A stretch of DNA of 64,000 bases from Wenzhouxiangellaceae bacterium. Its GTDB lineage: Bacteria > Pseudomonadota > Gammaproteobacteria > Xanthomonadales > Wenzhouxiangellaceae. The DNA lies in the NCBI GenBank assembly GCA_040904965.1, contig JBBDSL010000004.1:101-64100 (forward strand). Direction: 5' to 3'. A model generated the notes under the pieces. It saw only the letters and a program-made list of their open reading frames with translations. It searched no databases and was not told the origin of the DNA. Below are positions 2,782 to 12,762 of this stretch, piece by piece. A program made the translations under genes and the position numbers. Numbering within the stretch: the first letter of the stretch is position 1; every line of letters begins with the position of its first letter.

Positions 2782-2913
2782 CACTCCCGCTTCCCCCATC
2801 ACTCCCGCCTCTCCCCCCGTCATTCCCGCGAAGGCGGGAATCTCGAGAATCCCCCACCGATGCTCGAAACAGGCGCATGACCAACCGCCGACTTGCAAGA
2901 AGAGGCATTCCGG
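2782..2913. repeat. copy B of the ~96-nt hairpin element with its pyrimidine-rich leader
   Basis: 2818-2913 is near-identical to 2632-2727 (cgtcattcccgcgaaggcgggaatctcgagaat.ccccaccgatgctcgaaacaggcgcatga.caa.cgccgacttgcaagaagaggc.ttccgg). Confidence 0.85.
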
Positions 2914-2981
2914 CACTAGAATCAATCGAAGGGCAGCATTCCAAAAGGGGGTGTCACCAAATGCGCAACCAACGCCAGCCG

Positions 2982-3176
2982 TCAAACCAGGCCGTCCAGC
3001 GGACTTCTCGCACCAAGCGCGCCGCGTCGAACGACATGCGTGTAAATCATGGTCGTGCGCACATCGGAATGCCCCGCCTCATTCTGGATCGAAGGCGCAC
3101 AATGCCGCTCGGCAGCCAGATAGCTCAAGAATGTCGTCACCGGAAAAAATCTGACCTGGCATCGAAAATCAAAGGA
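2982..3176 (-). pseudogene. intI: integron integrase remnant (internal deletion; no start codon)
   Basis: The minus-strand frame reads [63 protein letters not shown]. The tail matches the IntI C-terminus (IntI1: [31 protein letters not shown]). The [9 protein letters not shown]..S.QNEA part looks like the N-terminal core-binding region fused directly to it. Confidence 0.8.
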
Positions 3177-3264
3177 TTAGGCGGTAAAGAAATGTCGACA
3201 GGCGTGATAAAAGAGCAGATCGGTCGTTTATTCGAGAAAAACTCTTTTCGCCACATATTTTTTA

Positions 3265-3271
3265 GTTAGGC
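3265..3271 (+). other. attI-like crossover core GTTAGGC
   Basis: A GTTRRRY core lies 8 nt upstream of the first cassette ORF, between the intI remnant and cassette 1. Confidence 0.5.
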
Positions 3272-3278
3272 AAAAATC

Positions 3279-3818
3279 GTGATGAGTGCCTTTATACAGA
3301 TAGTCGAAATTCTTGTATGGCCCGCTACCGTCATAATTGTAGTGATACTGCTTCGTTCTCCGTTGTCGGAGTTGGTCCCTACATTGAATAAGCTTAAATA
3401 TAAAGATCTTGAGCTAGAGTTTGAAAAGGAAGCAAGGGGCATTCTAGCTGATGCCGAGCGGGATCTGCCGGATCCGCCGAAGCCTGAGCCGTCAGAGGTT
3501 GAGGATCACGGAATAAGGTTTAGCCTTGCTCGCCTAGAGCCTTCGACTGAGATACTGGAGTCGTGGCGTCACTTGGAGTTAAAGCTACGCGAGCTGTCTG
3601 GTGGGAATGAGAGAAAGCGCAGCACGGGATATTTGGTTCGCGAACTTGCCAATGAGGGCAGAATATCTAAGGAGACAGAGAGCGTAGTGCTTTCGCTGTC
3701 ATCCCTTAGGAATAAAGTGGCACATACTGATGAAGAGGTAATATCTCGCGCAGCTTCATCATCGTTCAAAGATTCTGTTGCTCGTGTTATTTCAGCTCTG
3801 GAGTCCGAGAGTGCCTAA
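3279..3818 (+). CDS. cassette 1: N-terminal TM helix plus HEPN/DUF4145-like C-terminal domain
   Basis: 179 aa. It has a hydrophobic N-terminus (IVEILVWPATVIIVVILL) and a C-terminal LSSLRNKVAHTD, which fits the HEPN Rx4-6H motif. The TAA stop lies inside the attC core gcctaac. Confidence 0.6.
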   Translation: MMSAFIQIVEILVWPATVIIVVILLRSPLSELVPTLNKLKYKDLELEFEKEARGILADAERDLPDPPKPEPSEVEDHGIRFSLARLEPSTEILESWRHLELKLRELSGGNERKRSTGYLVRELANEGRISKETESVVLSLSSLRNKVAHTDEEVISRAASSSFKDSVARVISALESESA

Positions 3819-3890
3819 CAAAGCCATGAAATCCGCTCCCTACGGTCGCCGGACCTCGTTTCACTCGGCCGTTTATGGCAGGCGTTGGGC
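3813..3890 (+). other. attC site 1
   Basis: gcctaac-aaagccat...atggcaggc-gttgggc. The two ends are inverted complements with RYYYAAC and GTTRRRY cores. Confidence 0.75.
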
Positions 3891-3928
3891 GATTCATAAG
3901 AGCCGGTTAGAGTCAGAGGCGACCTATT

Positions 3929-4840
3929 GTGGACAATGGTAGGTATTCAGACCAACACACGCTTCAGTTTACTGAACATCGATGGTGGGAAAAGGTATTC
4001 GATTACCTTCGTTTCTTGATCCGTCAAGCCCCACTTTTTTTGGCTGTCGCAGCCTCGTTCTGGGCAGCTAGTGAAATCGCGATGGAAGCAACTGGGAACC
4101 GTATTCCCCTTTCGTATCTTGCAACATTTGTTTTGCTAGCTGCCGCTGCTATATCCGCTAGCCAGGCCTTTTTTCAATATAGGTCTTACACTCCGGAGAC
4201 GTTGATCGGCGAAAGCCGGCGCGTAAAAGCCATATTCCGAGAACGGAAGTGCGGCTGGCAGTGTTCTTTAGCCCGTGCGATGCTAAAAGACCGCATTGAA
4301 AAGACAGAGGAACGTCTTGAACGTATGAACCGGGGAGTTGCTTTTGTACCCCCGAAACATCTCAGTTTGTCCGAATATACAAAATGGATGCATCAAAGAA
4401 ACGAAGCAATCGTCCGGATCCTACGAGCCGTTGCGAGTTCCTGCACAAGTACACTCCCGGAAGCTTTAGCTAGAACGATTGATGAACAAAGCATTGGGGT
4501 TTTAAAGTTCGAAGTAGAAGAGCTCTCGAGTCTATATGATCATGCTGAGCGAATCGAACGTGAGTGCATAGAAATAGTCCCATCTGAAGGGATGGAGGAA
4601 CTTCATGCGTTGACTCGTGGGTGGACCAAGCCAATCAGAGATGGCGTCCTTGAATTGACAAAAATTCTGAAGCAGCTGAGCGAAATCAAAAGGAAAGACA
4701 TAAAGACTGGCGGAGTAGAATTACCAGAATTTAATATTCAGTTCGAGTCCCCAAAATGCATCTCGGAATTTACTGAGAGGCTACAAAGTTTAGATGCATC
4801 CGAAATCGCCCAACAAAATGCTCAAGCGGACGCGGGTTAA
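3929..4840 (+). CDS. cassette 2: hypothetical protein with two N-terminal TM helices and a helical C-terminal region
   Basis: 303 aa with a GTG start. The TM segments are APLFLAVAASFWAASEIAM and LSYLATFVLLAAAAISASQAFF. I recognised no family. Confidence 0.55.
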   Translation: MDNGRYSDQHTLQFTEHRWWEKVFDYLRFLIRQAPLFLAVAASFWAASEIAMEATGNRIPLSYLATFVLLAAAAISASQAFFQYRSYTPETLIGESRRVKAIFRERKCGWQCSLARAMLKDRIEKTEERLERMNRGVAFVPPKHLSLSEYTKWMHQRNEAIVRILRAVASSCTSTLPEALARTIDEQSIGVLKFEVEELSSLYDHAERIERECIEIVPSEGMEELHALTRGWTKPIRDGVLELTKILKQLSEIKRKDIKTGGVELPEFNIQFESPKCISEFTERLQSLDASEIAQQNAQADAG

Positions 4841-4901
4841 CTCTTGGGCCGGCGAGGCCGGGCACGCTTCGTGGCCACGCCGCTTAGCATAAACGTTATG
4901 C
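4835..4901 (+). other. attC site 2 (degenerate cores)
   Basis: ggttaac...cataaac-gttatgc. Inner arms gggccggcgaggcc and ggccacgccgc pair. The stop TAA is inside the first core. Confidence 0.55.
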
Positions 4902-4987
4902 GCCAATTTCAACGCACCGATCTGTTTTTGGAGGGTGATTTCGTCCACTGAATCGTTCTTAGGAAAACCCACAAATGGAGAACGAGT

Positions 4988-5269
4988 ATGGAGATTAAGA
5001 AGGACAACAAGGGGCAGCCCTTCATCGAATGGGAGCAGGCGCCCGGAGGCTACAAACGAGCTTGGATACAACACAAGGATCCCTCATCAGACAAGAATTG
5101 GGCGGATGTTCCAAGCGGGCGCTATTTAAACGTGGTTCGTATTGAGGAGCTAGGCGGCGGACCGGCGGGGAACGCTACCGACTTTCCGATATTCTCTGCA
5201 CTTGATGATGATCAGATTCTAACCGCATTTGTCGTATCCGTTTCAGCAATAACAGGTTGCAAGTTATGA
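4988..5269 (+). CDS. cassette 3: small hypothetical protein
   Basis: 93-aa ORF in a cassette bounded by attC2 and attC3. No family recognised. Confidence 0.45.
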   Translation: MEIKKDNKGQPFIEWEQAPGGYKRAWIQHKDPSSDKNWADVPSGRYLNVVRIEELGGGPAGNATDFPIFSALDDDQILTAFVVSVSAITGCKL

Positions 5270-5279
5270 AGAGGGGTGC

Positions 5280-5378
5280 GCTTAACATGAAGTTGAAGCT
5301 GCCCAAGGAACCTGTCACGCGGCTTGCTTACGCAACCCGCGAGCCAGAACCGCTTGGCAGCTTAACTTTGTGTTAAGG
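5280..5378 (+). other. attC site 3
   Basis: gcttaacatgaagttgaagctgcccaagg ... ccgcttggcagcttaactttgtgttaagg. The long arms are inverted complements. Confidence 0.75.
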
Positions 5379-5388
5379 CTACAAGTGT

Positions 5389-6066
5389 ATGGAAGATACA
5401 TTGTATAAAAAGTTGAGATACACAAAGCGCTGGTTCTCCTATTTCGATCTTCTAGGATTCGCGCAGCTTGTTAGAACTAGCGAAATAAACAGTGTTCTCC
5501 CTATTTATGAAAAGGTCCTAGAGACGATTGAGGAAAAGGCTGGGCAAAAAAAACCAAGAGGTCTTAGCTATTCGTGGTTCTCTGACACATTTATTATTTT
5601 CACCAGAGGAAGCTCCCTCGAAGAGTTCGGGCTAATAGAGCAAGCGGCACGACTCTTCTTTCAGAGGCTAATTTTGCACAAAATTCCAGTCCGAGGGGCA
5701 ATATCTTACGGCGACCTATATACCCAGCAAGAGAAAAATATCTTTCTTGGTGAGGCTTTGATGGATGCTTACGAATACGGAGAAGAGCAAAATTGGTTAA
5801 ATTTTGTAATTTCTCCCTCGGCAGCAAAGGCATTAGATACATTGGGCTTTCCAATGAGCGAGAGGGTTCACTATCGAATGGTAGAAAAGAAGGGGGTAAT
5901 TACTCATCCGGGCAACAAAGAGGTTTATGCATATGCTTTCAATAATGGTACGGTAAACGGAATTAACCCTCTGCTTAAATCACTTCACGCCATGAAAGAA
6001 TCATCGCCTAAGATCCAGAAAATAAAGTATGAAAATACAATTGAATTTATTGAGCGGCATGCGTAG
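5389..6066 (+). CDS. cassette 4: minimal nucleotidyl-cyclase-like (class III cyclase/GGDEF/mCpol-type palm) protein
   Basis: 225 aa. The three palm-fold motifs appear in order: YFDLLGFAQL (metal Asp), YSWFSDTFIIFT (second acidic hairpin) and IPVRGAISYGDLY (RxGxxxG strand). Confidence 0.5.
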   Translation: MEDTLYKKLRYTKRWFSYFDLLGFAQLVRTSEINSVLPIYEKVLETIEEKAGQKKPRGLSYSWFSDTFIIFTRGSSLEEFGLIEQAARLFFQRLILHKIPVRGAISYGDLYTQQEKNIFLGEALMDAYEYGEEQNWLNFVISPSAAKALDTLGFPMSERVHYRMVEKKGVITHPGNKEVYAYAFNNGTVNGINPLLKSLHAMKESSPKIQKIKYENTIEFIERHA

Positions 6067-6071
6067 GAAAG

Positions 6072-6131
6072 CCTTGACAAGTCAAAGCACACGGCCGCAG
6101 CAAAGCTGCGCCGGTGTTTGAGGCGTTAGGT
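6072..6131 (+). other. attC site 4 (short)
   Basis: ccttgac-aagtcaaagcacac ... gtgtttgaggc-gttaggt. 60 nt; the second core is consensus. Confidence 0.6.
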
Positions 6132-6138
6132 AACTGCA

Positions 6139-6609
6139 ATGGGTCGAGAATACTGCATTTGCCCGCCAAAGCTCACTACTCTTGAATCTGGTGACACTCC
6201 GACAATTGTCACAAAAGCCTCTCCCTGGACACACCGCAAAGCAGTCGAAAAACTGGCTAGATACTTTCGTCGAGAGTTCAAATATGATTTCGTGCCATTT
6301 CGTGCTGAATACGGGCAATCAGCCGATGATCCACACTATGAAGCCTATCTATTCCACGAGACTCGGTACAATCTTTTATACGAAGACCGCGATACAGAAG
6401 TTGTTTGCGGCGGGGCAGCCTGCTTTTTCCGCACTGTGGAAACCTGGTCTTTAAACTGGGTATGGTTCCATCCATACTTTCGTGGCCGAGGGTTGTTGTG
6501 GAAGTCCTGGGGGAGTTTTCGGTCCAGATATGGAGACTTTCAGATTGAAGAACCCCTGTCGCCGGCAATGAAAAGCTTTCTTAGCAAAATTGAAGGGCCA
6601 ATTAGCTAA
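6139..6609 (+). CDS. cassette 5: GNAT-like acetyltransferase
   Basis: 156 aa. WVWFHPYFRGRGLLWKSW resembles the GNAT motif A (R/Q-x-x-G-x-G/A). Confidence 0.5.
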   Translation: MGREYCICPPKLTTLESGDTPTIVTKASPWTHRKAVEKLARYFRREFKYDFVPFRAEYGQSADDPHYEAYLFHETRYNLLYEDRDTEVVCGGAACFFRTVETWSLNWVWFHPYFRGRGLLWKSWGSFRSRYGDFQIEEPLSPAMKSFLSKIEGPIS

Positions 6610-6666
6610 CGAGTTAGGATAGGTCGTGCGAGCGCAGCGAGCCACGACCTGATCCGGTTGTTGAAC
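6604..6666 (+). other. attC site 5 (homologous to the site at 16536-16594)
   Basis: agctaac...ggtcgtg-cgagcgcagcgagc-cacgacc...gttgaac. The stop TAA is inside the first core. Confidence 0.5.
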
Positions 6667-6878
6667 AAGCCCGGTCGTGATGCTGAGGGGTTCTTTATTT
6701 GCAAACAATTCCGTTTGCTTTTTGGCGGGTAACCGCGTAGCGCGACACGATGTCTTTTTTTAGGGCAAGCGCGGCTGTTGGCTTGTTTCCAAGCCAGTGC
6801 AATCAGGCGGTTTTGTCCATGGATACTTACCTGTCCTCCATGTCAAGCGGGCCGAGGTCTACGCCGTGCCGCTGTGTT

Positions 6879-7067
6879 CTATCCGGGTTGCCAGTGACCG
6901 CGGATGATTGATGCGACTCGCATGGGTTCGCCACAGCCGGGACAGGCGGGCGTGGACCGTTTCGGTCCGACCGGGAACGCAAGTGTGACATGCAGGATCA
7001 ACTGCACCAGCCCAAGCAGCTTTTTGGCGTTGCCATGCAGGAAGCCATAGCCCCGCACCCGCCGGAA
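6879..7067 (-). pseudogene. IS91-family (Y2 rolling-circle) transposase C-terminal fragment
   Basis: FRRVRGYGFLHGNAKKLLG....CPGCGEPMRVASIIRG matches the conserved tail of IS91 transposases (R.YG.LAN.. then the CxxCG zinc motif). Confidence 0.55.
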
Positions 7068-7274
7068 GCTTTGGCCACCTGATTTACTGCCGCGTCGTAG
7101 CGAGGGGCAGTCAGGTGCCGTGGATGGGGTGTTTCGCGACCGAGTGGACCGGAGGCGTAGCCGTAGCTTCGGTGAGGATCCGCGACCGAGCGAAAGGGCG
7201 CAGACGCGGTGACTGGCGGGGCCGTAGCAGACGTGGCGGTGAATTGGGTGGCCCAGGCAATACATGTTGAAGGA

Positions 7275-7379
7275 TCAGACACAGGAAGCCGAGGCCCGAC
7301 CGCGCGTGCCCTGCAGTTTCAGGACCCGAAGGTGTTTACCGTACAGCTCGTCGAAGCGTTTTTGCTCGGATTTGTTCAT
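7275..7379 (-). pseudogene. N-terminal fragment of an IS91-associated tyrosine recombinase
   Basis: MNKSEQKRFDELYGKHLRVLKLQG then a stop. A second, similar fragment (FDELYRKHVRAL) lies at about 16117-16190. The two share the junction aatacatgttgaag. Confidence 0.4.
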
Positions 7380-7578
7380 GGTAGACTTCTTGAAAACGCG
7401 CCCCGATTGGGCGCTCATCAAGGGTTACACAGGATGAATGGGGTTTTCTGCCGCGCAGCGGCTTCGTTCAACAAATCGTCGAGTCACTCAATTACAAACT
7501 GAAAACCGGAAGACGGCGGATGATTGCCAAAACACTGGGTCCCGGCAAGTGATCGCGTATTTCGAGCATGACCAATAC

Positions 7579-9160: not shown

Positions 9161-9481
9161 ATGGATCGGCGTTCATTTGTAAAAACAGTAAGCATTTCCT
9201 CGTTTATGGTGACCCTGAGTCCCCTTCTCGCCGGCTCGCTTCCTCACGTTTTAGTCAAACAACAACGCTCCCCGAAATCACTGGCGACCACCATCATGGC
9301 GGAATTCGGGCCGGGATTTAAAGTCTTCGAGTATCGAAAGATCGACGGTATGCATCATGCAACCATCGGTCATCTGGGTAACGAGTACCGCGTCTGTTCC
9401 GCCGATTTACGTGCATGGACGATTCTGTCTTACGATGTTCCGGAGGCTGGGGCCGGCAGTAACCGGAAGCGGCTGGTCTAA
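9161..9481 (+). CDS. small protein with twin-arginine (Tat) leader
   Basis: 106 aa. MDRRSFVKTVSISSFMVTLSPLLAG fits S/T-R-R-x-F-x-K followed by an h-region. A GGGGAG RBS lies upstream, and the gene sits directly upstream of the lodA-like gene. Confidence 0.55.
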   Translation: MDRRSFVKTVSISSFMVTLSPLLAGSLPHVLVKQQRSPKSLATTIMAEFGPGFKVFEYRKIDGMHHATIGHLGNEYRVCSADLRAWTILSYDVPEAGAGSNRKRLV

Positions 9482-9560
9482 TGGCCCATTAACAAAAAAG
9501 AGGCCCAGTTTCAGTTACACGTGGGCGCTTGTCCGACAGGGGCGATTAAAGGGAAGAGAC

Positions 9561-11555
9561 ATGGCATCAAAAATTTCGCGCATTCGTATCCATCCGGGTA
9601 TCGGGCTGGCACGCCTGGGTAACAGTGACGAGCACTTTATCGGCCCCGAAGCGCCGGGATGCATATCGGATCCCGGCGGAGAGAACGGACCGGGACCGGA
9701 CGGCGGATCCTACCGTGACGAACAGATGCGGCTGAAGCGCCAGGCGCAGCGTTATCGCATTTATGGATACGATGCCGATGACAATCTGGTTGGCGAAGTG
9801 AATGCGACAATGGCCGGGGTCGAGAAAATTCGATGGCGTGTTCACGTTCGCAATATGAAGGCAGCCAATTACGCTTTTCAGGGCGCCTACCTTTTCGATC
9901 CGTCCAAATACCGGAATCCCGGAATCCAGGGCGATGCAAAAAACCCTATCGATCGGGACCAGCTCATCATAGACCCCGGCCCGGTCACCGTCGATGCCGA
10001 TGTCATGCAGCCGGTAGTCATGACGGGCGACTGCTTTACCGGTATAGACGAAGGCGAGCTGCCGGGCTATCTGCGCTACTGCAATCATGACGTGCCCGAC
10101 CCCAGGCAACCGGTTCGGGTCACATACACGCCGGCGATGGATATCGAGTTGGGCCAACTGCGCCTGGACGACGAGCAACGACTTGTGTTTATTCCGGCAC
10201 CCGGCAAGGCCGAGTGCGTGACCACGCCTCAGGTGCAACTGTCCAATCCGAGCGAGTTTTTCGATCCGCCCAACGGCCCCGATCTGGACGATCCTCTGGT
10301 CAATCAGTTTGCGTATTTCAATGTGCCCGGCTGGTGGGACGACACCTGCGGCGGCGAGATTGATGCCACGGTACTGCTGGATGACGGCACGGTCCTCAGC
10401 ACCCGGGATAACGTGACTTCGCTCGACACAGAGGGGGTGCGCAACGCGACCAACGGCGCCTGGGTTGTGACGGCACCGCCCAAATACGCGCCTTACATGG
10501 TGCACGTGGTCTCGCTTCTGGATCGGGTCTACGAGGCGTTCCCGGAGTCGGATCCGAATCGCGGTTTGACGACCAATTTCTATCGGGATATCTACCCTAT
10601 TTTCGAGCGAGCGGTCAACTATGGCTGGGTAAGCGCCGAGGCGGCCGGCGTGGATCCTACTACCCGAAATCTGGCCCATGGACCCAAGCAGGCCGGTAAC
10701 TTGCTAAGCGCAACGAATCTTGCCGCTTTTGCCGATCCCGGCGAGGCATCGCTCCCGGCCAGAAAGCAGATCTATGGAATCATGCGGCATGCCGACAAGG
10801 GACGGTTGAGCGCGACGCTGCCGCCAGCGCCACCGGAACCCGCAGGCGATCCGGTCGAAGGCGGGGTATCGCGCGGCAATCTGATGCCCAAGTTATGGGG
10901 AACAGGGGGCAAGCCGCTGCAGAACGATCAGCTAGGACACAATTTGCCCAACCAGTATCTGAGTCTCACCGATTGGCAGCTCGCCAGGCTGGACGACTGG
11001 GCGAAAGGGGATTTTGAGCCCGGACAACTTGCCAAGCCTGTCCCGCTTGATGAGCTGCCACTGAAGAGTCGGCCACACGCGCTCGATGCCGCTGCGCTTG
11101 AGCCGACGATCGGCGGCGGCTTTCACCCCGGGATCGAATTTCCGTACTTGATCTGTTATCCGGAATTGTTTGCCGAGGCCTTTCGCGTGAAGGAAGGAAC
11201 AGAGCCGGGCTCGGTCGCAGCCTATATGTCGAGCCCCTGGCACGGAGACTACTGGTCATGCAATGTCGCGTGGTGGCCGGTCCAGCGTCCCGATATTGTT
11301 TTCGACTACGATCAAGCAACCGGCATGCGAACCTATCGGGAATGGTTTCGCGGATACGGGCCGCAGGGCGAGCCGCTATCGGCTACCGACGGTTACAACC
11401 AGATGGTGTATGCATGGCCGAAGCTCGGCATGGTGTTGCCGCACAAAGATCCCGACACCGGCGAGTTTGTAAACGACAACGGGTCCGTTGTATATCAGGA
11501 ATATCAGCGGGATCCAGAGCTGAACGAGCCGCCGAAGAAAAAAGACTGCTACTAG
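9561..11555 (+). CDS. LodA/GoxA-family quinoprotein (CTQ-type amino-acid oxidase family)-like protein
   Basis: Start trimmed to MASKISRIRIHPGIGLARLGNSDEHFIGPE (family N-terminal signature) with the RBS aagggaag. The C-terminal part has GGGFHPGIEFPY and SPWHGDYWSCNVAWWPVQRPD. No signal peptide. Confidence 0.7.
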   Translation: MASKISRIRIHPGIGLARLGNSDEHFIGPEAPGCISDPGGENGPGPDGGSYRDEQMRLKRQAQRYRIYGYDADDNLVGEVNATMAGVEKIRWRVHVRNMKAANYAFQGAYLFDPSKYRNPGIQGDAKNPIDRDQLIIDPGPVTVDADVMQPVVMTGDCFTGIDEGELPGYLRYCNHDVPDPRQPVRVTYTPAMDIELGQLRLDDEQRLVFIPAPGKAECVTTPQVQLSNPSEFFDPPNGPDLDDPLVNQFAYFNVPGWWDDTCGGEIDATVLLDDGTVLSTRDNVTSLDTEGVRNATNGAWVVTAPPKYAPYMVHVVSLLDRVYEAFPESDPNRGLTTNFYRDIYPIFERAVNYGWVSAEAAGVDPTTRNLAHGPKQAGNLLSATNLAAFADPGEASLPARKQIYGIMRHADKGRLSATLPPAPPEPAGDPVEGGVSRGNLMPKLWGTGGKPLQNDQLGHNLPNQYLSLTDWQLARLDDWAKGDFEPGQLAKPVPLDELPLKSRPHALDAAALEPTIGGGFHPGIEFPYLICYPELFAEAFRVKEGTEPGSVAAYMSSPWHGDYWSCNVAWWPVQRPDIVFDYDQATGMRTYREWFRGYGPQGEPLSATDGYNQMVYAWPKLGMVLPHKDPDTGEFVNDNGSVVYQEYQRDPELNEPPKKKDCY

Positions 11556-11580: not shown

Positions 11581-12762
11581 ATGATGAAGAAACTGCATGC
11601 TGCTTGGGACGTGTTGGTCATTGGCGCAGGACCCGCCGGCGCAGCAACAGCATTCGAAGTGGCGCGGGCTGGTTATTCGGTGCTGGTCATCGAACAGCGG
11701 ACAAGCCCGGGCAACAAATTTGGCGAATCTTTGCCGCCGGCGGCTGTGCCGGTGGTTGAGCGGCTGTCAGGCCCGCTCACCGCGGAGACCATGCATCAGT
11801 GGGGAATTGCCAGAACCCGCGGGAACATTGCCGCCTGGCAGTCGCCCGCCCCCGAACAATCCGATTTTTTCTTCACCCCCGAACGGCATGGCTTATCGAT
11901 CAATCGCACGCTGTTTGACCGTGCAATCATCAATTCCGCCTGTGCCGAGGGCGCCGTTTTTCAATTTGGAACCCGGGTCGACCAAGTGCATCGCGCACAG
12001 GTCGGCAACTGGCGCCTGAGGCTCAACGGTGGTAACGGTGGTGGCGAGACCTATGCGCGATTTGTGGTCGATGCGTCCGGGCGTGCGTCGATGCTGGGCC
12101 GCAGGCTGGGTGTCGAACGTTATTGCCTCGATCATCTTTTCGCCTTCGGCCAGACCTGGCTCGCCGCAGAAGAAGACAATGACCCTTATACCCGGATCGA
12201 AGCGGTGGACGATGGCTGGTGGTACAGCCAGAAGATTCCGGTCGACCGCGACCATACCAGCGCCCGCCGGGTCGTTTTCCATACCGATCGTGACCTACCC
12301 GTGGCGTTGCAGGCCGGCAATCATGCTGGATTTTCCAGGCTTCTGGAACGAACAGAAATCGTCCGCTCCTTGTTGCACGCCCAAGGCTACCGCCCGCAGG
12401 AAGATGTTCGCGGCGCTGATGCCGCCAGCTCCCGAATGAGCCAGTTTGCGGGAGACGGCTGGCTGGCGGTGGGAGACGCCTCGCAGGCCTTCGACCCGCT
12501 CTCCTCACAGGGCATCTTCAAAGCGCTAATCGACGGCGCTGACGCCGGGCGACAATTGTGCAACGCGCTGCGCGATCCAAGCCGGGCGCGAACGCTGTTT
12601 CGTGATTATGCGCAACGCCAGGCGCGCAAGTGGCTGGATTATTTACGCCAACTCCAATACGTTTATTTTTCCCAGAAGCGCTGGTCCGAACGGCCTTTCT
12701 GGAATCGTCGCGGGCACGAAGATCCCGGCGTCAACCGATACCAGATGAGAGAAGTATCATGA
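11581..12762 (+). CDS. LodB/GoxB-like FAD-dependent flavoprotein
   Basis: 393 aa with the dinucleotide fold WDVLVIGAGPAGAATA. It sits immediately after the lodA-like gene, as in known lodAB pairs. Confidence 0.7.
   Translation: MMKKLHAAWDVLVIGAGPAGAATAFEVARAGYSVLVIEQRTSPGNKFGESLPPAAVPVVERLSGPLTAETMHQWGIARTRGNIAAWQSPAPEQSDFFFTPERHGLSINRTLFDRAIINSACAEGAVFQFGTRVDQVHRAQVGNWRLRLNGGNGGGETYARFVVDASGRASMLGRRLGVERYCLDHLFAFGQTWLAAEEDNDPYTRIEAVDDGWWYSQKIPVDRDHTSARRVVFHTDRDLPVALQAGNHAGFSRLLERTEIVRSLLHAQGYRPQEDVRGADAASSRMSQFAGDGWLAVGDASQAFDPLSSQGIFKALIDGADAGRQLCNALRDPSRARTLFRDYAQRQARKWLDYLRQLQYVYFSQKRWSERPFWNRRGHEDPGVNRYQMREVS

Follow-up and report, generated by a model that had tools for sequence, protein, structure and literature searches.

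A putative cyclase-fold enzyme of a large, unnamed family encoded in a single-gene integron cassette of a Wenzhouxiangellaceae bacterium

The stretch of DNA analyzed here (64,000 nucleotides of contig JBBDSL010000004.1 from a Wenzhouxiangellaceae bacterium, called the window throughout) carries at positions 5389 to 6066 a gene for a 225-amino-acid (aa) protein that is predicted to adopt the palm fold of class III adenylyl and guanylyl cyclases, the cyclase homology domain (CHD). We propose, with moderate confidence, that this protein is an autonomous, Mg-dependent CHD-palm enzyme that uses nucleoside triphosphates (NTPs) and has a conflict-related role. It belongs to a very large unnamed family, and its gene is the sole occupant of a promoterless integron cassette. 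The protein is most like a class III cyclase, yet it lacks both the sequence profile and the full set of catalytic residues by which that family is recognized. What the first-pass annotation had observed at 5389-6066 is confirmed as a whole; its interpretation, an orphan signal generator akin to the enzymes of Pycsar or mCpol systems that works alone or has its partner genes spread over independent cassettes, is partly supported.

Reading and translating the DNA recovered the open reading frame (ORF) and its three motifs at the annotated positions. The gene and the protein features on which the argument depends are the following:

5389..6066, plus strand: cyclase-fold gene, fourth in a five-cassette array; ATG start, 225 aa, TAG stop at 6064-6066
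5443..5460, plus strand: FDLLGF, residues 19-24; D20, which ends β1 ahead of the G23-F24 turn, is predicted to be the metal-binding Asp
5575..5601, plus strand: WFSDTFIIF, residues 63-71; S65-D66 belong to the β2-β3 hairpin, and D66 is predicted to bind metal as the second Asp
5689..5721, plus strand: VRGAISYGDLY, residues 101-111; R102-G103 opens β4 and R102 is the predicted triphosphate-binding Arg
5749..5784, plus strand: GEALMDAYEYGE, residues 121-132; helix α4, the site of the GxxVNxAxR motif of cyclases
6025..6030, plus strand: K213-Y214, part of a KYxNT motif in a family-specific pair of C-terminal helices

The 225-aa protein has a 100% identical counterpart, annotated as hypothetical, in a Wenzhouxiangellaceae metagenome-assembled genome, and it contains no sensor or effector domain, as had been noted. 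When the gene is compared with 80%-identical homologs, nonsynonymous divergence is low (pN = 0.116) against a saturated synonymous divergence (pS = 0.82), which indicates strong purifying selection.

The fold assignment comes from two independent structure models. An AlphaFold2 model of the window protein, built on 42 homologs, reached a predicted local distance difference test (pLDDT) score of 88.7 and a predicted template modeling (pTM) score of 0.86, and all of its top 50 Foldseek matches in the PDB are catalytic domains of class III adenylyl or guanylyl cyclases (best E = 2e-6, template modeling (TM) score ~0.5, ~200 columns aligned). The top match to this model in BFVD was also of this kind, and the best GGDEF-like match there reached a TM score of only 0.29. 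The second model, of P0298, a relative with 25% identity to the window protein, was derived from an alignment of the branch that shares 20-26% identity with it; this model scored a pLDDT of 90.5 and again retrieved class III cyclases only in its Foldseek top 50 (E = 3e-7, TM 0.58/0.66). The predicted elements follow the order β1-α1-α2-β2-β3-α3-β4-β5-α4-β6-α5-β7-β8, which is that of the CHD; in the window model, strands 59-64 and 67-72 form the hairpin, residues 101-113 form β4 and residues 122-132 form a helix, and two additional C-terminal helices (194-205 and 208-224) have no counterpart in the canonical domain. Foldseek and the element order from DSSP agree, across the two models, on a CHD palm with canonical topology, so the cyclase-like palm fold claimed in the first-pass annotation was borne out by the structure prediction and Foldseek search proposed to check it. 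Both models lie closer to class III cyclases than to GGDEF or Cas10 proteins: neither top 50 contains a GGDEF, Cas10, mCpol, polymerase or Thg1 structure. The window protein also has neither a Pfam match to GGDEF (PF00990) nor a GG(D/E)EF motif, which together with the low TM score in BFVD places it outside that family. A Thg1-like 3'-5' polymerase, which an SDE hairpin had brought to mind, was rejected; there is no Pfam match to it, and the Foldseek lists lack it.

Conservation of residues suggests that half of the cyclase active site has been kept. In an alignment of 53 sequences, which reaches down to 21% identity and includes both subfamilies and one fusion protein, D20, G23, S65, D66, G103, G121 and K213 are invariant, and P100, R102, G108, A123, E132, W136, Y162, Y214 and T217 are conserved in at least 90% of the sequences. 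The canonical residues of the C1 half of class III cyclases are, in mammalian numbering, D396, D440 and R484, and the real cyclase sequences that we recovered show the motifs FADIxGF, KxxGD (hairpin xIGDxY), RxGxHxG and WGxxVNxAxR (e.g., WGxTVNxASR). The WFSDTFIIF hairpin of the window protein corresponds to the xIGDxY hairpin of cyclases and VRGAISYGDLY to RxGxHxG; in the predicted secondary structure D20 ends β1, S65-D66 sits in the β2-β3 hairpin and R102-G103 starts β4. By position, then, D20, D66 and R102 occupy the places expected of the two metal-binding Asp residues and the β4 Arg, and their conservation makes the metal-triphosphate half-site look intact. Near the second half-site the family has conserved residues of its own (S62, N117, D/E126, Y128, Y130, R163 and K213). 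Taking models and alignment together, the protein is probably a cyclase-fold enzyme with a two-metal NTP site that lies outside the PF00211 sequence definition.

The protein had been called an orphan, a description that its relatives contradict. A word-indexed search returned 174 of them, and an exhaustive hidden Markov model (HMM) search of 1.84 billion cluster representatives (clusters at 50% identity) returned 5,880 clusters at E<=1e-3 and 1,655 at E<=1e-10, nearly all of them stand-alone proteins of 215-255 aa matched from end to end. Some members already bear the automatic UniRef name 'Guanylate cyclase domain-containing protein'; this name, found on two members, is the sole hint of a cyclase at the sequence level. 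The N-terminal extensions of a few longer homologs (P0188, P0070 and P0016) were considered as additional domains and discarded, as they look like artefacts of upstream start codons. A scan of the window protein against PADLOC-DB v2, which the first-pass annotation had recommended, found 0 families at E<=1, and a scan against NCBIfam found nothing usable, a SIR2 match (E = 0.12) being noise. Of 108 family members, 95 match PHROG 23933 (phrog_23933, unknown function) over their N-terminal half. Text searches of the literature, including the work on anti-phage integron cassettes, found no named system and no report of the family. Judged from these searches, it is a very large, unnamed family that has no Pfam, NCBIfam or PADLOC model.

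In the window the gene occupies a cassette of its own within a short integron array, whose parts are, in order:

2982..3140, minus strand: integron integrase (intI) remnant of ~52 codons, an N-terminal segment joined to the C-terminal catalytic end
3265..3271, plus strand: core site GTTAGGC, read directly from the sequence, which opens the cassette array (attI/first-cassette junction)
3279..6609, plus strand: five-cassette array, 42-50% GC against 62-70% in the flanks (GC profile; low-GC region 3270-6700)
3279..3818, plus strand: HEPN-like cassette ORF, first in the array
3929..4840, plus strand: two-transmembrane (2TM) cassette ORF, second in the array
4988..5269, plus strand: 93-aa cassette ORF, third in the array
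3813-3890, ~4835-4901 and 5280-5378: attC-like sites between the ORFs of the array
5280..5378, plus strand: attC upstream of the cyclase-fold gene, belonging to the preceding cassette; R'' GCTTAAC, R' GTTAAGG, with the crossover G|TT at 5372-5374 marking the start of the cyclase-fold cassette
~6071..6131, plus strand: own attC of the cyclase-fold cassette; degenerate R'' GCCTTGAC, stem 6082-6121, R' GTTAGGT at 6125-6131, with the cassette ending at G6125
6139..6609, plus strand: GNAT-like cassette ORF, fifth and last in the array

The upstream attC folds well on the bottom strand (-33.3 kcal/mol, z = -6.65), and an equally good fold was found in 0 of 200 shuffled sequences. The cassette's own attC is weaker (-16.8 kcal/mol, z = -2.57): it has a 40-nucleotide (nt) stem and a good R', and its R'' is too degenerate to pass a strict criterion for that box. 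Between them, the cassette (5373-6125) contains only the cyclase-fold gene and has too little space for a second one, so the single-gene cassette of the first-pass annotation stands, with an attC on either side of the gene. No sigma-70-like promoter was found on the plus strand in 2900-6800; the cassette is thus a promoterless ORF with an attC that forms a bottom-strand hairpin. The array adjoins a trace of its integrase, divergent to it and upstream of it. Residues 16-49 of this remnant match residues 285-318 of Vibrio cholerae IntI4 (PDB 2A3V; E = 5e-8), residues 3-22 are similar to residues 52-71 of the same enzyme, and in-frame stop codons lie upstream. The matches to separated segments of IntI4 and the upstream stops indicate that intI has been internally deleted and that the platform is non-functional, which leaves the five cassettes stranded without a working recombinase.

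The wider genomic context of the window-type branch was examined in 38 loci from GTDB species representatives, which span Proteobacteria, Nitrospirota, Acidobacteriota, Chlorobiota, Desulfobacterota, Planctomycetota and other phyla. A canonical attC (typically GCCTAAC...GTTAGGC) abuts the family gene in ~14 of the 38, its R'' often overlapping the stop codon, and under a strict criterion 10 of 37 family genes have an attC after the stop codon, compared with 22 of the 401 remaining ORFs of those loci. All-against-all BLASTP of the ORFs found no neighbor common to more than two or three of the 38 loci, and no Pfam family occurs more than twice among 133 flanking proteins. Twenty immediate neighbors are mutually unrelated (among them a metallo-β-lactamase fold, ADP-ribosylglycohydrolase, GASH, ABC-3C CTD8, PD-(D/E)XK, polyketide cyclase and tetratricopeptide repeats (TPR)), and none of these 20 has a cyclic nucleotide monophosphate (cNMP)-binding, CARF, SAVED or TIR domain. 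Three further loci with precomputed Pfam labels give the same picture, with no conserved neighbor. The HEPN-like, 2TM, 93-aa and GNAT-like proteins of the other window cassettes have no relative in 47 family loci (jackhmmer, E<=0.01). Because these four proteins never co-occur with the family, the proposal that partner genes are distributed over the adjacent cassettes is rejected for the 2TM and HEPN-like cassettes, and the suggested check for homologs beside a 2TM or HEPN gene came back negative for relatives of the window proteins; of the two possibilities first raised, 'works alone' is the reading that the context favors for the window branch. Matches to defense models do occur among the neighbors (Lamassu, a TIR effector, bSEFIR, reverse transcriptase (RT)-protease, PD-T7-5, Aga REase and several PDC candidates), as do GASH/DO-GTPase and ABC-3C components. 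These neighbors are no more than suggestive of a conflict role. Integron cassettes are known from the literature to harbor anti-phage genes (PMC13434031, which cites Darracq 2025 and Kieffer 2025). The present cassette, a small single-gene unit of no known function within a chromosomal array, is of the class of element in which many compact defense genes have been shown to reside, and the family was not found among those reported in the text that our literature searches reached.

A second branch of the family has a different organization. A tblastn search of plasmids turned up distant members from the Bacillus cereus group, and from there a Firmicutes branch of 488 matches, whose members aligned here are 20-26% identical to the window protein and belong to the same family (hhalign probability 99.3%, E = 5e-20 against the window family). 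In all eight independent Firmicutes loci (from Bacillus, Clostridium perfringens, C. botulinum, Paenibacillus and two metagenome assemblies), an upstream gene for a protein of 173-221 aa abuts the family gene or overlaps it by 4 nt:

Paired modules, by locus and position: L040:4310-5621; L041:3125-4468; L043:4347-5663; L045:4479-5705; L047:4348-5693; L051-L053

The C-terminus of this upstream partner matches PF21648, 'M1E1E6-like integron cassette protein', a family founded on Vch_cass3 (PDB 3FY6); Vch_cass3 is an integron cassette protein of V. cholerae with a novel fold and no known function (PMC3548836). The N-terminal half of the partner is His-rich and conserved (HELHMSL, KHHxYMIxNRG and FYxHIHPVEDLL). 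The palm protein itself is homologous to that of the window branch, with the same invariant residues, length and fold; the differences are that the partner is always present and translationally coupled and that these modules lie on plasmids and chromosomal islands rather than in integron cassettes. Four of the eight sit beside defense or restriction genes (Septu PtuAB with an OLD nuclease; a Dodola-type DUF6414 and AAA pair; a type I restriction-modification HsdR; and an AlwI-type endonuclease with Vsr), and the other four have no recognizable defense neighbor. We regard the M1E1E6-like gene and the palm gene as a candidate two-gene system, so far uncharacterized. One further member, on plasmid p536 of B. 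wiedmannii (L039:4452-5768), is a 438-aa fusion of GmrSD_N/DUF262 (residues 37-183) with the cyclase-fold domain (residues 191-428; hhalign 99.2%).

This pairing raises the question of whether the window protein, too, has a partner, encoded elsewhere in the genome in a two-component system that has been split across cassettes or loci, an M1E1E6/Vch_cass3-like protein, of a kind whose stand-alone homologs are themselves integron cassettes, being the obvious candidate. We think this unlikely. It would accord with the constant pairing in Firmicutes, with the founding of PF21648 on a protein that is itself an integron cassette product, and with the identical conservation of motifs in the two branches. 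Against it, an HMM of five Firmicutes partners and 3FY6 found no M1E1E6-like ORF at E<=20 in a six-frame translation of the 64-kb window or within 6 kb of the 38 relatives (L001-L038), and solitary and paired members are equally long, so that nothing obvious makes up for the partner where it is absent.

Our preferred reading remains that of an enzyme which acts on its own. The protein would be an active, two-metal, NTP-binding enzyme, probably forming a head-to-tail homodimer as other CHDs do. It would consume or convert NTPs, yielding a cyclic mononucleotide or another cyclic or linear nucleotide, or simply depleting the NTP pool, and it would act alone in conflict, whether in phage defense or abortive infection, rather than by signaling to a dedicated adjoining effector. 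Autonomy is suggested by the lack of a conserved neighbor in the 38 loci, by the heterogeneity of the 133 flanking proteins and by the 14 of 38 genes that form attC-flanked single-gene cassettes; a conflict role is suggested by the integron store of anti-phage genes, by the defense neighbors, by the half of the Firmicutes modules that adjoin defense genes and by the DUF262 fusion.

A good deal weighs against this reading. The window protein has no Pfam match at E<=1, PF00211 included, and a scan of 108 diverse relatives gave scattered chance matches only, again with no PF00211 at E<=1, which puts the family outside that sequence profile. Sequence and profile searches of the PDB gave chance matches (a Fab chain, SplA protease), and hhalign of the family against a seven-sequence CHD alignment rebuilt from the PDB matches returned a probability of 2%, its short, non-significant alignment covering β1 alone and placing FDLLGF on the FADIxGF of adenylyl cyclases. 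The C2 half of class III cyclases contributes K938, D1018, N1025, R1029 and K1065 (mammalian numbering), and their specificity pair is Lys/Asp for ATP and of the Glu/Cys type for GTP. The transition-state Asn and Arg of the α4 motif GxxVNxAxR are missing from the family, position G121+4 being Met or Ile and G121+8 being Glu or variable (M125 and E129 in the window protein), and no specificity pair is found at D66-4 (S62) or G121-3 (I118, with N117 one position earlier), though residues elsewhere might take its place. All of these residue equivalences were drawn from motif order and predicted secondary structure rather than from superposition. With the α4 Asn/Arg and the specificity pair missing, there is no assurance that the protein makes 3',5'-cNMPs; it could be inactive or have a different catalytic activity. 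A signal-generating enzyme with no receptor is, besides, mechanistically awkward. The defense link is one of guilt by association, and PADLOC 2023 contains no model of the family. Phage collections are nearly devoid of members: tblastn of phage genomes found a single metagenomic contig from the human gut (MT835554.1:8979-9425, a relative 26% identical to the window protein), and a scan of IMG/VR gave no confirmed match. Lastly, the loss of the integrase, the lack of a detected promoter and the fourth position in the array mean that the window copy may be poorly expressed or silent.

A more ambitious version of the same idea sees in the family a widespread and hitherto unrecognized class of cyclase-fold enzyme with a re-tooled second half-site, whose product is new for the fold or whose activity is a drain on the NTP pool, and in which a single 225-aa protein confers phage resistance; the Firmicutes partner and the DUF262 fusion would then be regulated elaborations of it. 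We offer this version tentatively. If it is true, these are among the smallest autonomous nucleotide-based defense genes, and the Vch_cass3 fold gains its first function.

The lost Asn/Arg pair also lends itself to a different explanation, that of a dead or non-cyclase palm protein which binds nucleotides or nucleic acids, as a sponge or a sensor, or which acts as a template-independent nucleotidyltransferase or polymerase-like enzyme. The palm fold is common to GGDEF proteins, Cas10 and polymerases, and in the B. wiedmannii fusion the cyclase-fold domain follows GmrSD_N in the place where canonical GmrSD enzymes have a nuclease domain (DUF1524). Set against this are the retention over thousands of clusters of both metal-binding Asp residues, the Ser that precedes the second of them, the Arg-Gly and the C-terminal Lys, which argues for chemistry rather than mere binding, and the fact that cyclases alone, with no polymerase or GGDEF protein, make up the 50 best structural matches of either model. 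We consider this explanation improbable.

That the enzyme is an ordinary regulatory cyclase, passing cAMP, cGMP or a similar signal to host cNMP receptors of the CRP/Fnr type and the like with no role in conflict, seems to us quite improbable. The class III CHDs (PF00211: CyaC, Cya2, Rv1900c, Ma1120, sGC and tmAC C1/C2) do share with the family their fold and element order, the Asp that ends β1, the hairpin Asp and the Arg-Gly that opens β4; the family is close in size to minimal single-domain CHDs, of which Ma1120 is one among the structural matches, and the lack of a dedicated effector nearby would suit a regulatory role. Unlike class III CHDs, however, the family has no detectable profile similarity to them in the 108 members scanned and none of their α4 Asn/Arg or Lys/Asp (Glu/Cys) residues for transition state and substrate; its hairpin reads FSD rather than GD, it carries two extra C-terminal helices with KYxNT, it has no regulatory domain, and it resides in integron cassettes. 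Its genes are repeatedly mobile (attC cassettes, plasmids and islands) and patchily spread from Proteobacteria to Nitrospirota, Acidobacteriota, Chlorobiota and Firmicutes, a pattern unusual for housekeeping signaling.

Among nucleotide-based defense systems, the closest analogies are with Pycsar and with mCpol/Panoptes, and kinship with either, as the first-pass annotation had implied, found no support. Pycsar (PycC with a cNMP-binding TIR or TM effector) and its cGMP offshoot Pucsar are alike in their small class III-type fold and their mobile or defense context. They differ in that the window protein has no PycC match at E<=1 in PADLOC, that no cNMP-binding effector adjoins the family gene in more than 38 loci, and that the canonical catalytic residues are not kept. 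In mCpol/Panoptes, the palm enzyme OptS is coupled to an S-2TMβ or CARF-TM effector (PMC12657218, PMC12657230, PMC13577387). Like that enzyme, the family consists of minimal, sensor-less palm proteins, and by analogy it is conceivable that a constitutively active enzyme in a guard system of this kind could suit them. Unlike it, they have no co-conserved 2TM or CARF partner and no GGDD/GGDEF hairpin, the window protein reading WFSDTF at that place. Pfam includes both an mCpol model and a Panoptes-type S-2TMβ model; no Pfam match at E<=1 was found for the palm protein, and the 2TM protein at 3929-4840 likewise matched nothing in Pfam or PADLOC at E<=1. A split system in which the palm protein generates a signal for the 2TM and/or the transmembrane HEPN-like protein of the adjacent cassettes, in the manner of Panoptes or Pycsar, is largely refuted and highly improbable. 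In its favor, the cassettes are physically close within one array, the HEPN-like protein shows an RNKVAH motif together with a weak match to HEPN_Swt1 (E = 0.016), and Panoptes, with its minimal palm enzyme and 2TM effector, offers a precedent (PMC12657218). Against it, each gene has its own attC and is an independent mobile unit, none of the neighboring cassette proteins has a relative in the 47 family loci, and neither the 2TM protein nor the palm protein matches its Panoptes counterpart in Pfam.

The interest of the proposed palm enzyme lies in its being a conserved, mobile protein of ~225 aa, found in thousands of clusters, with no family model and no studied member and yet an apparently intact metal-triphosphate site. 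If active, it would extend class III-type cyclase chemistry past the canonical Asn/Arg mechanism; the family could bring to nucleotide-based immunity a module with neither sensor nor effector, or demonstrate that enzymes of this type work by depleting nucleotides. The invariant pairing in Firmicutes provides a testable handle on the Vch_cass3 fold, which has been without a function since 2013, and the two branches together indicate that integron cassettes and Gram-positive defense islands draw on one gene pool. That integron cassettes hold compact anti-phage genes is already established (PMC13434031). We see the cyclase-fold cassette family as a solid lead rather than a surprise, with an upside if its chemistry or a single-gene defense phenotype is demonstrated.

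Some further features of the array and its surroundings deserve mention. The first cassette protein (3279-3818, plus strand; 179 aa) has an N-terminal hydrophobic segment, and its RNKVAH sequence is a C-terminal Rx4H motif; its HEPN_Swt1 match falls short of the cut-off set by Pfam. A membrane-anchored HEPN RNase, independent of the cyclase-fold gene, is a plausible identity for this protein. The last cassette (6139-6609, plus strand) encodes 156 aa with a weak GNAT match (Acetyltransf_1, E = 0.009) and has a poorly defined attC; the terminator-like hairpin that follows at 6701-6718 brings the array to a close. Upstream, between an epimerase gene and the intI remnant, two direct copies of a 121-nt GC-rich element (2610-2730 and 2796-2916) are 91% identical and 186 nt apart, and 21-nt sub-repeats (CCGTCATTCCCGC...) precede them. 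Downstream, the minus strand of 6880-7420 is high in GC and has disrupted reading frames (MNKSEQKRFDELYGKHLRVLKLQG... and ...CPGCGEPMRVASII among them) that look like the frameshifted debris of a mobile-element gene, with no Pfam match in 6880-7420 and no BLAST match of 6700-7520 to plasmids. Shortly beyond the array lies a pair of genes for a quinoprotein amino-acid oxidase of the LodA/LodB type: 9357-11555 (plus strand) encodes a LodA-like L-lysine ε-oxidase (LodA_N, LodA_C), and 11581-12762 (plus strand) a FAD-dependent LodB-type flavoprotein.

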